A stretch of 64,000 bases of DNA from the NCBI GenBank assembly GCA_963718525.1, contig OY970355.1, positions 1,792,001 to 1,856,000 of the forward strand, in the 5' to 3' direction. The notes below the pieces were generated by a model. It had not been told where the DNA came from. It saw nothing but the letters and a program-made list of their open reading frames with translations, and did not search any database. The stretch's first letter is position 1. Each line of letters opens with the position of its first letter. Below, in pieces: positions 5,545 to 14,227 of this stretch. The translations under genes and the position numbers were made by a program. This stretch comes from Candidatus Dormiibacterota bacterium (GTDB lineage: Bacteria > Chloroflexota > Dormibacteria > Aeolococcales > Aeolococcaceae).

Positions 5545-6312
5545 ATGATCAGAAGTTGGGCCGAGCATTCTCGGGCGTTCTCCGGAAGGTATGTTGCCGT
5601 CACGGGGGCACAAGGCGGAATCGGACAGGCTACGGCAAGGGCATTTGCCGAGGCCGGAGCCACCGTGATCACCATTGACCGGACGCTGGAAGAGGCCAAC
5701 CGCGCCGCGGCCCGGTTACCTCGAAGGACACCCAATGTAGCCCACGCACCGGTGGCGATGGATTTCGCCGAGTCGTCCTCCGTCGCCGAGGGATTACATC
5801 AGATTCGTTCAATCTCACGCAACATTGCGGCTCTCGTCAATGTAGCTGGGATGGCGGAGGATGCCCTCGTGCACATGGTCACTCCGGAATCCATTCGGCG
5901 GCACATGCAGATAAACTTCGAAGCCCATGTTCAGATCACGCAGTACGTCACCAGAATGATGCTGCGTTCAGGTGGGGGGTCGGTGGTTAACGTGTCGAGT
6001 GTGACAGGGATGGATGGGAATCCCGGCCAGTTGGCATACGGATCATCCAAGGCTGCGGTGCTGTCCGCCACCCGCACCTTGTCAATGGAACTGGCTTCAC
6101 GCGGCATCCGCGTGAATGCCGTTGCTCCCGGAATGATTGACACGGACATGAGCAGGGCTTTGGACGATGCGGGCAGGGATCGCATAATGCGGCGAGTCAG
6201 CATGAAACGAATCGGAGGGCCGGAGGAGGTTGCGGCGACGATTCTTTGGCTATGTTCGCCCGCTGCCTCGTATGTCACCGGGCAGACCCTGCGCATAGAC
6301 GGCTGCATGTGA
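5545..6312 (+). CDS. SDR family oxidoreductase (FabG-like) 1
   Basis: TGAQGGIG, YGSSK, VNAVAPG, GQTLRIDG; ORF open from 5488. Confidence 0.9.
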   Translation: MIRSWAEHSRAFSGRYVAVTGAQGGIGQATARAFAEAGATVITIDRTLEEANRAAARLPRRTPNVAHAPVAMDFAESSSVAEGLHQIRSISRNIAALVNVAGMAEDALVHMVTPESIRRHMQINFEAHVQITQYVTRMMLRSGGGSVVNVSSVTGMDGNPGQLAYGSSKAAVLSATRTLSMELASRGIRVNAVAPGMIDTDMSRALDDAGRDRIMRRVSMKRIGGPEEVAATILWLCSPAASYVTGQTLRIDGCM

Positions 6313-7067
6313 TGGCGCATCGCCTCCTCGAAGGGCATCGGGTCCTCGTCACGGGCGCGAATCGCGGGATCGGGTGGGCGACGTGTCAGACGCTGGCTGC
6401 CAATGGCGCGCACGTTATAGGTGCCTCACGTTCCAGTGGTGTCGAGTTCCTAACACGGCTAGAGTCTTTGGGCAGCACGTACGGGGTCCAGGTAACGAAC
6501 GTGCAACTAGACCTGACCGACCCTGAATCCCTTAGGCTGGCGTTATCGTACGTACGCAAGTCGGAGGAACCACTTTCGGGTCTGGTCAATAATGCTGGCG
6601 TGACCTACAATGGGCTGTTGCAGATGTCCCCTCTAGAGGCCGCGCGCGATGTCTTTGAAACCAACTTCTTCGGGCTGCTGAGCCTCATGCAGGGCTGTGC
6701 GAAGCTCATGGCGCGGCAGCGTACCGGAAGCATCGTCAACGTGGCTTCCACGGCAGCTATCGACGCCAATCCCGGTAGGTCCATATACGGCGCCTCGAAG
6801 GCTGCCGTGATCACGCTGACCAAGGCGTCTGCACGCGAACTTGGGCCATTAGGTATCCGAGTGAATGCCGTAGCTCCAGGTGTGACCGAGACGGAGATGC
6901 TTGCGACCATGACCGATGAAGTGATCGCCGATGTAGAGAGAACTACAGACCTCGGTCGCCGAGGGCAACCCAGCGAGGTCGCCGAAGCAATCTGTTTTCT
7001 GCTCTCGCCCATGGCGTCCTACGTGAGCGGCCAGGTATTGCGAGTCGATGGCGGGATGCGGCCATGA
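6312..7067 (+). CDS. SDR family oxidoreductase (FabG-like) 2
   Basis: TGANRGIG, NNAG, YGASK, GQVLRVDGG; ATG at 6312 overlaps previous TGA. Confidence 0.9.
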   Translation: MAHRLLEGHRVLVTGANRGIGWATCQTLAANGAHVIGASRSSGVEFLTRLESLGSTYGVQVTNVQLDLTDPESLRLALSYVRKSEEPLSGLVNNAGVTYNGLLQMSPLEAARDVFETNFFGLLSLMQGCAKLMARQRTGSIVNVASTAAIDANPGRSIYGASKAAVITLTKASARELGPLGIRVNAVAPGVTETEMLATMTDEVIADVERTTDLGRRGQPSEVAEAICFLLSPMASYVSGQVLRVDGGMRP

Positions 7068-7904
7068 ATCTCGACGCTGTGACGGACGCTTCCTTGGCGG
7101 AAATAGCAGCCCGTTCCAGGAGGTCCGTGGTGAGCATTGGGCATGCCGCCGGTGGCATGGGGGCACATTTCGGGCCAGCGCTCTCGTTGATCGAGATAAT
7201 GGCCGTCGTATATGGCATTGCAGTTCGCCATTCGCCGATTGATCGCCTGAAACCGGATCGTGACCGAGTTCATCCTGAGCAAAGGGCATGGGAGCCTGGC
7301 GCTCTATGCGGTGCTTCACGAGTACGGATACATTGATGCAGCAGTCTTGGTCACGGCTGAGCAGGACGGAACCGTGTTACCGGGACAGCCCATCAGGAAC
7401 AGGGAGTTGGGCATCGAATTCTCCAGCGGAAGTCTCGGGATGGGCCTGTCCTTCGGTGTAGGTCTAGCGCTGTCCGCTCGGATGAGTGCTAGCGATCGCT
7501 CAATCTACGTTGTAATGGGCGACGGAGAGACCAACGAGGGCTCGGTATTGGAGGCAGCGATGTCAGCTTCTCACTTCGAGCTGGGACACCTGACGGCGAT
7601 CGTGGACGTCAATAGCCTGCAGTCCGATGGTCCCACCTCGGAGGTCATGGATTGTGACCTTCGTGCAATCTGGGGGGGCTTCGGCTGGGATGTGATCGAG
7701 GTGGATGGCCACTCAATTCCGGAACTAAGGGTGGCCCTTCTTCGTCCCGCTAGTTCGCGTCCTCGGTGCATTCTCGCCCACACGATCAAAGGAAAGGGTG
7801 TGTCGTTCATGGAAGCAGTATCGGAGTGGCACCACGGACGCATGACTGACGCACAGTTCGAGGCAGCCTCGCAAGAAGTTCACTTGGCAGATTTGGCCCC
7901 ATGA
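7064..7904 (+). pseudogene. Transketolase N-terminal (ThDP-binding) subunit with one-base frameshift near 7268 (possible sequencing error)
   Basis: Frame 1 ends ...KPDRDR, frame 2 begins FILSKGHG; GAC CGA G TTC ATC has one extra base; GSLGMG and GDGETNEG motifs intact. Confidence 0.85.
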
Positions 7905-13169: not shown

Positions 13170-13822
13170 TTCCGGGACTAGACGTTGCGATAATCGGCGC
13201 GGGTGGATTCGGCCGGGAAGTTCTACAGTATTGCCGAGACGCTATCGACGTCGGTTGGCCTCATCGAGTCGTGGGTTTCATCGATGACCGCTCTGACGTG
13301 CTCCAACAGTTCGATGTATCCGTCCCGGTCGTCGGCGGACTCACGGACGTTGGAAGAGTCGACGCGCGAGCCTTCATCATCGCGATGGGCGACCCCATTT
13401 TGAGACGCAGAATGGCCGACGTCGTTGCCGACACTGGCGGCATTTTGGTTTCGTTGATTCACCCAACTGCATACTTGTCACCCACTGCGCAGATCGGCAG
13501 CGGTACGTTGCTCTGCCCATACAGTCTGATAGCGGCCAATTCCACTTTGGGATCGAACGTCGCGGTCAACGTCTATGCCTCCGTGGGTCACGACGCCCGT
13601 GTTGGAGACCACTGCGTGATCTCGTCATACTCGGCGGTGACTGGAGCGGTGTCTCTGGGTAGCGAGTCCTTTTTGGGCACTCACTGCACGATTACCCCCG
13701 GAAGGACAATCGGCCGCCGCAGCAAGGTCTCCGCCGGCTCGACTGTCACGCGCGACGCACCGGCCGGGTCGTTGCTTGTTGGGAACCCGGCCAAGGGTCG
13801 GGTCATGTATCCGGTGAATTGA
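13166..13822 (+). CDS. NeuD/PglD-like sugar N/O-acyltransferase (Rossmann-like N-term + hexapeptide repeats)
   Basis: IIGAGGFGRE, LIHPTA, VGHD catalytic His, VGNPAK; ATGA overlap. Confidence 0.9.
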   Translation: MIPGLDVAIIGAGGFGREVLQYCRDAIDVGWPHRVVGFIDDRSDVLQQFDVSVPVVGGLTDVGRVDARAFIIAMGDPILRRRMADVVADTGGILVSLIHPTAYLSPTAQIGSGTLLCPYSLIAANSTLGSNVAVNVYASVGHDARVGDHCVISSYSAVTGAVSLGSESFLGTHCTITPGRTIGRRSKVSAGSTVTRDAPAGSLLVGNPAKGRVMYPVN

Positions 13823-13833
13823 TCGACCTCCGG

Positions 13834-14227
13834 ATGGACGTCGAGTTGATCGCGATAGCGTTGGGGCGCCTCGGAGATATCCCTGGGGTGGGCGTGGATG
13901 TCGAAGCGATCGACCGGTTCACGAAGCCAGATGGGCGGCTCTTGACCGCTACGGAGTTGGCGTATTGTGCCGCCCAGGCTGAACCGGCCCAGAGTTCGGG
14001 CCGGCCGTTGGTGCGCCAAGGAAGCAGTGTCGAAGGCGTGCGCTAAGTACTTGCAGTTGGCCCTGCGCGAGATCGAGATCCGTTCTGACCCTTCTGGCCG
14101 ACCGGTCGTCGTGCTTCCGGACAGAGCGACCGAAGTTGGGCTTGCGGCCGAAGTGTCGATCGCCCACGCAGCCGGAGCGGCCATAGCAGTAGCGGTCGCC
14201 GGGGTTCGACCAAATGCCGAGTGCTGA
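13834..14227 (+). pseudogene. acpS: Holo-ACP synthase (AcpS-type phosphopantetheinyl transferase) with one-base frameshift near 13996 (possible sequencing error)
   Basis: GVGVDVE...ELAYC in frame 1; AGRWCAKEAVSKA, GRPVV, VSIAH in frame 2; CAG AGT T CGG GCC has one extra base. Confidence 0.82.

Follow-up and report, generated by a model that had tools for sequence, protein, structure and literature searches.

What does a transketolase do in a surface-polysaccharide locus, next to enzymes that resemble those that make the aldehyde of bacterial luminescence? This question is raised by ten genes at positions 5545–14227 of a 64,000-nucleotide stretch of DNA from a Candidatus Dormiibacterota bacterium (GenBank assembly GCA_963718525.1, contig OY970355.1, positions 1,792,001 to 1,856,000), which we will call the window. 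The ten genes, which we will call the cassette, are all on the + strand; they are intact and make up a single operon-like unit within a Wzx/Wzy locus for a surface polysaccharide. Very probably, the cassette as a whole serves to assemble, on an acyl carrier protein (ACP) of its own, a dedicated acyl group that is then put on an amino sugar. The best explanation of the cassette as a whole would be reduction by the LuxE-like and LuxC-like enzymes, extension by two carbons by the transketolase, reduction by short-chain dehydrogenases/reductases (SDRs), and transfer of the product to a 4-amino sugar. We give this explanation a probability of roughly 45%.

The cassette begins with two FabG-like SDRs: SDR1 (5545–6312; Pfam adh_short_C2, E = 1.5e-55, with matches to FabG-type NCBIfam models that are under their cut-offs) and SDR2 (6312–7067; adh_short_C2, 1.6e-59), which is directly 5′ of a split transketolase (TK). 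TK-N (7064–7904; Transketolase_N, 3.1e-29) is the half that binds thiamine diphosphate (ThDP), and TK-C (7901–8956, 351 amino acids; Transket_pyr and Transketolase_C in Pfam) is the pyrimidine-binding and C-terminal half. These are followed by a small, probable ACP that would be dedicated to the cassette (about 9049–9309, with an alternative start near 9019); an AMP-forming ligase, presumably an acid:ACP ligase (9275–10732; AMP-binding, 1.2e-44); a LuxE-like acyl-protein synthetase (10729–11880); a LuxC-like acyl-thioester reductase with the aldehyde dehydrogenase (ALDH) fold (11841–13169); an N-acyltransferase of the PglD/PerB/VioB kind, for 4-amino sugars (13166–13822, or from an alternative GTG start at 13148; PglD_N plus hexapeptide repeats); and an AcpS-type phosphopantetheinyl transferase (13834–14227; ACPS, PF01648, in two pieces). 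An earlier reading of the window from its letters and open reading frames (the sequence-only reading) had listed these ten co-oriented genes, and the Pfam and NCBIfam scans bear it out, as they do its view of the ten genes as an acyl-building cassette, for which both the enzyme families and their linkage speak. The overlapping stop and start codons that it described are also there (1–4 nucleotides; there are five such junctions with one choice of start for AcpS and six with another). Its gene list needs one correction, as neither TK-N nor AcpS is in one frame in the window as written, where each is spread over two (see below).

The LuxE-like protein matches PF04443 over profile positions 22–385 of 391 (166.6 bits, cut-off 24.9). 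An R/K-G-C motif lies within its last 30 residues, and the motif is C-terminal in 111 of 115 LuxE-like sequences (three of the 115 are copies of the window's own). The acylated cysteine of LuxE, as in Photobacterium, lies in this C-terminal region. The LuxC-like protein matches PF05893 (83.5 bits, cut-off 21). Its Cys272 is invariant in an alignment of 13 sequences and sits in a loop (residues 269–273) that is modelled with low confidence. In an AlphaFold model (13 sequences, mean pLDDT 79.7), the LuxC-like protein best matches Photobacterium LuxC from the LuxC-LuxE complex (7xc6_A, E = 1.5e-16, TM 0.62), with ALDH enzymes next. As the sequence-only reading had argued, the cassette is not for bioluminescence: against the equivalog models NF052244 and NF052251, LuxE scores 68.7 versus 550 bits and LuxC scores 27.4 versus 750 bits, and no luciferase or LuxD family was found among the open reading frames (ORFs) scanned between 39 and 31699, a set that leaves out some small ORFs.

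For the ACP, the PP-binding family (PF00550) aligns over the attachment site with 19.1 bits, below the cut-off of 20.8. The translation has a D-S motif, and the corresponding small genes on Deinococcus and Ponticoccus plasmids are annotated as "acyl carrier protein." The ligase has an NCBIfam match that spans most of the model to AmcH, a 2-oxoglutaryl-ACP ligase (1.6e-32, below the cut-off), which weakly hints that its substrate might be a di-acid. The N-acyltransferase exceeds the cut-off of TIGR03570 (NeuD/PglB/VioB; 182.7 versus 160.8 bits), and its closest structures in the PDB are PerB (4.1e-24), VioB (1.1e-22), and PglD-type 4-amino-sugar N-acetyltransferases. Given that it is embedded in an ACP-based acyl factory, with linkage to both an ACP and an AcpS, it probably uses a donor other than acetyl-CoA.

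The association of these genes is more than chance: three other genomes have all ten in nearly the same order, with 43–78% protein identity. These are metagenome-assembled genomes (MAGs) of a Thiodictyon (locus L002), a member of the Acidimicrobiaceae (L004), and a member of the Actinomycetota (L008). The gammaproteobacterial cassette (L002 3808–12450) is 44–78% identical to the window's, with eight of the ten genes at 65–78%, and is nearer to the window than the two Actinomycetota MAGs are, which suggests either transfer between phyla or a binning error.

To see which of the genes are constant, we turn to the wider family. A profile search of genome contigs with an alignment of LuxC homologues gave 587 relatives, from which we kept the best 80 foreign loci and placed the window's proteins on them by tblastn. 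LuxE was present in all 80 of these best loci, the AMP-ligase in 77, the ACP in 72, an SDR in 70, DegT in 39, and the transketolase pair in 3. The commonest gene order was ACP-SDR-ligase-LuxE-LuxC. In a tree of LuxE, the window's group (with L002, L004, L008, and L003) is nested among core cassettes of Pseudonocardia, Actinoplanes, and Deinococcus that have no transketolase. Those consist of ACP-SDR-ligase-LuxE-LuxC(-acyltransferase-AcpS), and the window differs from them by the added TK pair and one SDR. Because of this nesting, we think that the TK pair and one SDR were later additions to a core cassette. The presence of TK takes two changes on this tree, versus a mean of 28 when shuffled, although the root is arbitrary and the sampling is biased by the LuxC and TK-C queries.

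Conversely, is the transketolase linked to the core? When metagenome contigs were scanned with TK-C in turn, 80 loci were obtained at 38–54% identity, many of them on short contigs, with LuxE in 32, the ligase in 35, the ACP in 31, and an SDR in 42 (mostly about 1.6 kb upstream of TK-C, adjoining TK-N). If we consider only well-flanked loci (at least 7 kb upstream and at least 6 kb downstream), then LuxE is present in 12 of 18, in 8 of 8 whose TK-C is at least 45% identical to the window's, and in 12 of 13 that belong to the cassette's own clade of transketolases. Thus, the transketolase is part of the ACP/LuxE/LuxC module, as had been claimed from the sequence, and not of an independent sugar pathway. 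TK-C and LuxE also match together on plasmids of cultured bacteria, namely Rhizobium anhuiense, R. leguminosarum, and R. beringeri. The region on plasmid pRA_T24_2 of R. anhuiense T24 brings together TK-N, TK-C, a hexapeptide acyltransferase, a small gene the size of an ACP, the ligase, DegT, LuxE, LuxC, and an SDR. The carriers include soil Actinomycetota-type MAGs, the Thiodictyon MAG, the Rhizobium plasmids, and metagenome contigs (some labelled as human gut).

The cassette family is modular. Gene order differs by lineage, and some cassettes have extra genes, either for a FabA-like dehydratase and a GMC oxidoreductase or for KASIII and a protein with the metallo-beta-lactamase fold. In three loci (L091 5914–9160, L101 9841–13016, and L167, a Rhizobium plasmid, 22187–25313), a recurring sub-module adjoins TK or LuxE/LuxC genes; its members are a FabA/FabZ-like dehydratase, a GMC flavin oxidoreductase, an SDR, and a small protein. 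The enzyme families of this sub-module point to further chemistry in some cassettes, which might include dehydration and alcohol oxidation.

The cassette transketolases differ from canonical ones at the positions that hold the substrate. The nearest solved relative of TK-C is the split transketolase of Carboxydothermus hydrogenoformans (6yaj, 4.4e-68), and TK-N has GDGE...DVN, which corresponds to the GDG...N motif for metal and ThDP, but TK-C scores under the cut-offs of the transketolase equivalogs of NCBIfam. Our alignment holds 86 TK-C sequences (those of the window and its genome and those of the fetched loci), of which 37 are linked to LuxE and 49 have no LuxE match. The glutamate that activates the cofactor is present in all of them (37/37 and 49/49), and the equivalent of His473 (E. 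coli numbering) is a histidine in nearly all (36/37 and 47/49). In contrast, His461, Asp469, and Arg520 are each retained in 0 of the 37 LuxE-linked sequences, versus 15, 11, and 24 of the 49 others, and 11 of those 49 have all three (again 0/37 with LuxE). Canonical split transketolases have the motif HAGxTVGEDGASHQ around His461–His473 and G-RS around Arg520. The window and the other cassette transketolases have G[A/S]GFAMGx[F/L]GNTHY at the first site, and at the second they have no arginine and an insertion of one residue. In the window's TK-C, the residues in the columns of His461 and Asp469 are glycine and phenylalanine. In a tree of TK-C, all 37 LuxE-linked sequences are in one starred clade of 62 and the canonical ones are in a separate starred clade. 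In the transketolases of E. coli and yeast, His461 and Arg520 bind the phosphate of the substrate and Asp469 reads the 2-hydroxyl of the acceptor. The loss of all three suggests that the substrates are not phosphorylated and that the acceptor aldehyde has no 2-hydroxyl.

We propose the following route, each step of which rests on enzyme families, gene linkage, and published precedent. AcpS would convert the ACP to its holo form, and the AMP-ligase would load onto it one carboxyl of a small di-acid, with malate and succinate as C4 candidates. LuxE (with ATP) and LuxC (with NAD(P)H) would reduce the other carboxyl to an aldehyde, to which the split transketolase would join a two-carbon ketol unit. 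One SDR would then reduce the new ketone and the second SDR would reduce another carbonyl. The product would be a polyhydroxy acyl-ACP that resembles a deoxy-aldonic acid. Finally, the PerB/PglD-like transferase would transfer the acyl chain onto the amino group at C4 of a sugar of the UDP-4-amino-4,6-dideoxy-HexNAc type (HexNAc, N-acetylhexosamine), which a PglF-like dehydratase and the DegT aminotransferase would make, and a PglC-type transferase would start the repeat unit. Our data establish the gene families, the intactness of the genes, their conserved linkage, and the altered active site of the transketolase, and from these we infer the substrates, the order of the steps, and whether the intermediates are bound to ACP. 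The extension by the transketolase has in our view a little less than an even chance of being right.

Several observations weigh against this route. First, the lost phosphate-binding residues also speak against ordinary ketose-phosphate donors. Second, the closest precedent for the extension (the azinomycin pathway, below) shares the altered site only in part: the azinomycin-type TK-C of locus L168 is outside the cassette clade and keeps the equivalents of His461 and Arg520. Third, the LuxC-like protein is distant from the LuxC of luminescence, both in its equivalog score (27.4 bits versus 750) and by sequence against 7xc6 (E = 0.008). Fourth, one well-flanked locus with a transketolase of the cassette clade, L136, has no LuxE or LuxC match within 10 kb of the TK, so transketolases of this clade can work without LuxE and LuxC. 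Fifth, many of the TK cassettes have one SDR only, and the addition of an extra SDR together with the TK is restricted to the window's subgroup. Last, the PglD-like transferase is present in 13 of the best 80 LuxC-centred loci, and, as the loci were sampled by their likeness to the window's LuxC or TK-C, these and the other counts are not frequencies in nature. As to L136 itself (7405–18560), it is a capsule-type locus that contains NeuB and encodes an SDR, TK-N, TK-C, an ACP, a flippase, a PglD-like protein, a ligase, a second SDR, and a second ACP.

The precedent that we find most useful for the chemistry of the proposed route is azinomycin biosynthesis, where AziC3 and AziC4 activate and reduce a carboxyl and then the transketolase pair AziC5/AziC6 adds two carbons (accessible part of PMC9570651). 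In both cases, a carboxylate would become an aldehyde, a split transketolase would add two carbons, and the resulting ketone would be processed. The azinomycin pathway differs in that it uses a kinase and an ArgC-type reductase instead of LuxE and LuxC, its ketone is transaminated rather than reduced, and its product is an amino acid for a nonribosomal peptide synthetase (NRPS). The similarity would be of mechanism and logic and not of orthology. The azinomycin route seems a better precedent than the quinocarcin and naphthyridinomycin pathways. Locus L168, which is on a plasmid of Streptomyces parvulus, has argB, argC, a split TK, a DegT aminotransferase, a RimK-type ligase, and NRPSs; the residue in the Asp469 column of its TK-C is a tyrosine.

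For the acyl group and its transfer, a precedent is Vibrio cholerae O1, where rfbK–rfbO are said, in work by Stroeher and Manning, to be responsible for acylating perosamine with 3-deoxy-L-glycero-tetronate. These genes reportedly encode an ACP, an AMP-ligase, a LuxC/LuxE-like protein, and a hexapeptide transferase, which together put a hydroxy-acyl group on a 4-amino-6-deoxy sugar, as we propose for the cassette. The two systems likely share the logic of reducing one carboxyl of a C4 di-acid. The V. cholerae system is not known to include a transketolase, and its reductase partner is reportedly an iron alcohol dehydrogenase rather than an SDR. The product itself is described as "tetronate acylated perosamine" (accessible part of PMC6479008).

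A cassette of similar families has been noticed in flagellin glycosylation islands: in Aeromonas (Group II) and in Enterobacteriaceae, "fatty-acid-like" genes encode an ACP, a 3-oxoacyl-ACP reductase, an AMP-dependent synthetase, LuxE, and LuxC (accessible parts of PMC7874193 and PMC4875605). The five families and the setting in a glycan locus are the same, the published gene order is that of most of our 80 LuxC-centred loci, and those parts of the two papers assign no function to the genes and mention no transketolase. This comparison is of gene families and not of sequences. To the five genes, the window adds the TK pair, the second SDR, the PglD-like transferase, and AcpS, and its setting is a Wzx/Wzy locus rather than a flagellin island. 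Finally, the sugar half of the proposed route resembles the Pgl system of Campylobacter, where PglF, PglE, PglD, and PglC are the steps for di-N-acetylbacillosamine. All four families are found in or around the cassette (by Pfam, NCBIfam, and PDB matches), with the difference that the gene for the window's PglD-like enzyme lies amid genes for building an acyl group on an ACP.

What would the acyl group be? From malate, the route would yield a 2,4,5,6-tetrahydroxyhexanoyl group, and from succinate, a 4,5,6-trihydroxyhexanoyl group. Malate without the transketolase would yield 2,4-dihydroxybutanoyl (residue C4H6O3, 102.03 Da), the tetronate of V. cholerae O1. Groups of both sizes may have been seen on flagellins. 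In Treponema denticola, a flagellin glycan carries 2-methoxy-4,5,6-trihydroxy-hexanoyl on a nonulosonic acid (accessible part of PMC13439194). Its skeleton (an amide at C1, 3-deoxy, and a 4,5,6-triol) is what the route would produce from malate, so this might be a product of the predicted kind. We regard it as a lead only: the likeness is one of products, the T. denticola glycan is a nonulosonic acid on a protein and not a polysaccharide, and the accessible parts of PMC9481697 and PMC13439194 name no T. denticola genes for glycan synthesis. In Aeromonas piscicola AH-3, the flagellin has an unexplained moiety of 102 Da and a pseudaminic acid derivative of 376.14 Da, and the flagellin island contains an ACP-SDR-ligase-LuxE-LuxC cassette without a transketolase (accessible part of PMC7874193). 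By our arithmetic, a C4H6O3 residue fits both (for the derivative, 316.13 − 42.01 + 102.03 = 376.15 Da); this is a coincidence of masses and not evidence of structure.

An alternative, and the one that the sequence-only reading favored, is that the TK pair acts first: it would load a C2 unit from a ketose phosphate onto the ACP, as a glycolyl or hydroxyethyl starter, which the ligase, LuxE, LuxC, and SDRs would then elaborate. We consider this unlikely. It would explain why TK-C immediately precedes the ACP, both in the window and in several other loci, why L136 combines the TK, ACP, and ligase but has no LuxE or LuxC match, and why some of the variant cassettes include KASIII and FabA-like enzymes, by which a starter could be lengthened. 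However, C2 loading needs the ThDP-bound unit to be oxidized to a thioester, and Pfam finds no lipoyl, E2, or flavin domain in the ten genes that could do this. No KASIII (ACP_syn_III) loader is found among the ten genes by Pfam either. Furthermore, the residues that hold a sugar phosphate are lost in 37 of 37 LuxE-linked TK-C, and the linkage of TK with LuxE (12 of 13 well-flanked loci in the cassette clade) is given no role. The model for C2 loading is the two-component transketolase of the naphthyridinomycin and quinocarcin pathways, NapB/NapD/NapC (QncN/L/M, DinU/DinS/DinT), which lies beside a small ACP and is reported to make a hydroxyethyl unit from xylulose-5-phosphate that is passed to the ACP, with a KASIII-like protein as the proposed loader; DinS, the homologue of NapD, has 754 amino acids (accessible part of PMC7570522). 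That system feeds an NRPS line rather than a sugar. The analogy fits the cassette poorly: besides the missing KASIII, lipoyl, and flavin domains, TK-C does not have the long extension of NapD and DinS, as it has 351 amino acids (about 320 in its orthologues) and no extra domain. What TK-C does have beyond the orthologues of L002, L004, and L008, which end near residue 320, is a tail of 33 amino acids (8858–8956). A database protein that is 94% identical to TK-C has the same length of 351 amino acids. Among the 63 matches listed for longer fused forms of TK-C, none has an ACP or lipoyl domain, which is weak evidence; nearly all are fusions of TK-N with TK-C or DXS-like proteins, and one, from Bacteroidales, has an unrelated domain (PF18306). 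A search of protein clusters with TK-C gave only generic transketolase and DXS clusters.

A second alternative keeps the architecture of the proposed route and changes the donor: the transketolase would act like DXS or an E1 enzyme, decarboxylating a 2-oxo acid (pyruvate or hydroxypyruvate) and joining the acyl anion to the aldehyde from LuxC to form an acyloin. With pyruvate, the end of the chain would be 6-deoxy, that is, a methyl group. TK-C does match DXS models (TIGR00204, 1.7e-51) and DXS structures, and the loss of the phosphate-binding residues suits a donor without a phosphate. Also, His100, which contacts the 1-hydroxyl of the donor in canonical transketolases, is replaced by glutamine in the window's subgroup. 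Nevertheless, most TK-N of the cassettes keep the equivalent of His100, and the best structural relative by sequence is the true split transketolase of C. hydrogenoformans (4.4e-68). We doubt a DXS-like or E1-like reaction, with either 2-oxo acid, a good deal more than we believe it.

Third, the TK and the SDRs could act on a nucleotide sugar, to make a sugar with a branched or extended chain, with no part played by the ACP, ligase, LuxE, and LuxC. Such chemistry is known, as the ThDP enzymes YerE and AviB1/B2 add two-carbon branches to keto-sugars. The SDR and TK do form a constant adjacent pair (an SDR in 42 of the 80 TK-centred loci, mostly just upstream of TK-N), and in L136 the TK pair comes directly after NeuB. 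Still, a role apart from the acyl genes is improbable because of the linkage to LuxE, ACP, and ligase, which holds in 8 of 8 well-flanked loci with at least 45% identity and in 12 of 13 in the cassette clade. In addition, DegT and the dehydratase vary in their position relative to the TK, or are missing, and C4 of the window's sugar is needed for amination.

Before the proposed route can be credited to this genome, the split frames of TK-N and AcpS have to be explained. In the orthologous loci, both genes are in a single frame. We compared positions 5000–17000 of the window with Logan contigs of four public runs, which we will call X1 (possibly the source sample), X2 (another sample from the same study), and X3 and X4 (relatives from peat, with about 92% identity). 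One X1 contig spans the entire region and differs from the window by only four substitutions and two gaps. The contigs from X1 and X2 have one base fewer at 7269, in TK-N, and one fewer at 13995, in AcpS; X3 and X4 have the same gap at 13995, and X3 also has a gap at 7267. With the extra bases removed, TK-N is an open frame of 279 amino acids and AcpS is one of 130 amino acids (its two pieces match profile positions 1–43 and 44–108 of PF01648). The bases at 7269 and 13995 are spurious assembly errors, and the cassette is intact. The pseudogene reading of the two genes is rejected because the read-based contigs restore both frames.

The errors share a sequence context. All six differences between the window and X1 (at 5465, 7269, 8748, 13995, 14705, and 15349) coincide with [C/G]AACTC or GAGTTC in the window. 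At these places, the contigs have GACTC or GAGTC, both of which are GANTC, and the differences comprise four calls of A for G and two extra Ts. This looks like a motif-linked consensus error with a methylation-type pattern. The genome encodes two genes of the N6_N4_Mtase family (G000:C1:971337–972050 and 974222–974809), which are candidates for the suspected methylation of GANTC. As the genome contains 1067 GAGTTC sites and 1074 GAACTC sites, other apparent frameshifts in this assembly may be artefactual too, and its completeness of 88.9% may partly reflect such errors. SDR2 of locus L008, from a long-read MAG, is split over two frames as well (4715–5468), which may be the same kind of assembly error. 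The glycosyltransferase family 2 (GT2) gene downstream of the cassette is frameshifted after about 95 amino acids; there, the X1 contig shows no indel, and this break looks real.

Thus, although the broken GT2 gene with an rve_3 fragment after it, the frameshifts as written, and the failure to find the LuxC-like gene in 40 related genomes (below) could suggest that the cassette is decaying and no longer functional, with pseudogenes for TK-N and AcpS, this has very little to recommend it, given that the contigs lack exactly one base per site, that all six differences from X1 lie at one motif, that the other eight genes are open, and that a housekeeping AcpS is encoded elsewhere in the genome.

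The rest of the locus is consistent with a polysaccharide that contains an amino sugar. Upstream of the cassette are a fusion of an N-terminal PglC-like domain with a PglF/CapD-like 4,6-dehydratase (39–2624, − strand; Bac_transf, 2.3e-21, and Polysacc_synt_2, 1.3e-98), a PglC-type phosphoglycosyl transferase (2720–3397, +; Bac_transf, 5.8e-56), and a DegT/PglE-type sugar aminotransferase (3394–4527, +; DegT_DnrJ_EryC1, 4.4e-120). Downstream are a GT4 glycosyltransferase (14254–15597, +; Glycos_transf_1, 1.1e-30), the broken GT2 gene followed by a remnant of an IS3-type integrase (15594–16500, +; Glycos_transf_2 in the first 95 amino acids only, then rve_3, 4.5e-22), a Wzy polymerase (17308–18831, +; O-ag_pol_Wzy, 1e-40), and a Wzx-type flippase (20032–21399, +; Polysacc_synt, 3.5e-07). 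Further genes, by Pfam, are another GT4 and GT2, a sortase, Wzz/BY-kinase, and a DUF4012 protein. The amino-sugar setting seen by the sequence-only reading therefore stands, from the PglF-like dehydratase, DegT, and PglC-type transferase to the N-acyltransferase, Wzy, and Wzx, with two additions. Its layout omitted a gene between DegT and SDR1 that resembles dual-specificity phosphatases (4929–5474, +; DSPc, 4.2e-12), and it did not describe the broken GT2 gene and the integrase remnant that follow the GT4.

The DSPc-like gene has no tblastn match in the fetched loci L002–L161; the stretch that contains it is covered by contigs of the relatives X3 and X4. Between Wzy and Wzx, an ORF of 212 amino acids (18842–19480, −) matches the first 60 profile positions of Epimerase only (E = 0.0034) and may be a gene remnant. 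A second PglF/CapD-like dehydratase is found at 24866–26776 (−).

The locus looks accessory, because the GC content is about 0.59–0.62 across 6–24 kb (0.63–0.70 in the rest of the window) and because a search with the window's LuxC-like protein did not find the gene in 40 related genomes. Elsewhere in the genome are a second AcpS-like gene (G000:C1:1887635–1887844, 40% identity to the cassette's) and a separate transketolase of canonical type (G000:C1:1498667–1500226), so the cassette's AcpS and TK are extra, dedicated genes.

The sequence-only reading knew of no characterized pathway with this full combination of genes, and our literature search agrees: we found no description of a transketolase with LuxE and LuxC in a glycan locus in the literature that we searched, which did not extend to most subscription journals and supplements. 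The combination is not unique to this genome, however, and is widespread. The five-gene cassette without a transketolase had already been noticed, and left unexplained, in flagellin islands (accessible parts of PMC7874193 and PMC4875605); what would be new is the added step of chain extension.

If the transketolase does extend non-phosphorylated aldehydes that have no 2-hydroxyl, then it would be a natural counterpart of an engineered enzyme and useful in biocatalysis. Enzyme engineers have evolved the transketolase of E. coli toward such aldehydes.

A broader and more doubtful possibility is that the cassette transketolases represent a general and hitherto undescribed way for bacteria to decorate surface glycans with N-acyl groups derived from deoxy-aldonic acids, with LuxE and LuxC making a semialdehyde and the TK extending it. 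If so, the semialdehyde may be formed while on the ACP. The core cassette without TK would make groups of the 2,4-dihydroxybutanoyl type, which would match the 102 Da moiety and the additional 60 Da of the 376 Da derivative in A. piscicola, and the version with TK would make groups of the tetrahydroxyhexanoyl type, such as the 2-methoxy-4,5,6-trihydroxy-hexanoyl of T. denticola. The unmethylated form of the latter would have a mass of 162.05 Da, which is that of a hexose, so glycoproteomic work may have misassigned it. The N-acyl groups of amino sugars influence antigenicity and recognition by phages and by the immune system, and most of the exotic ones have no assigned genes; this widespread cassette offers a testable route to polyhydroxy-acyl decorations.

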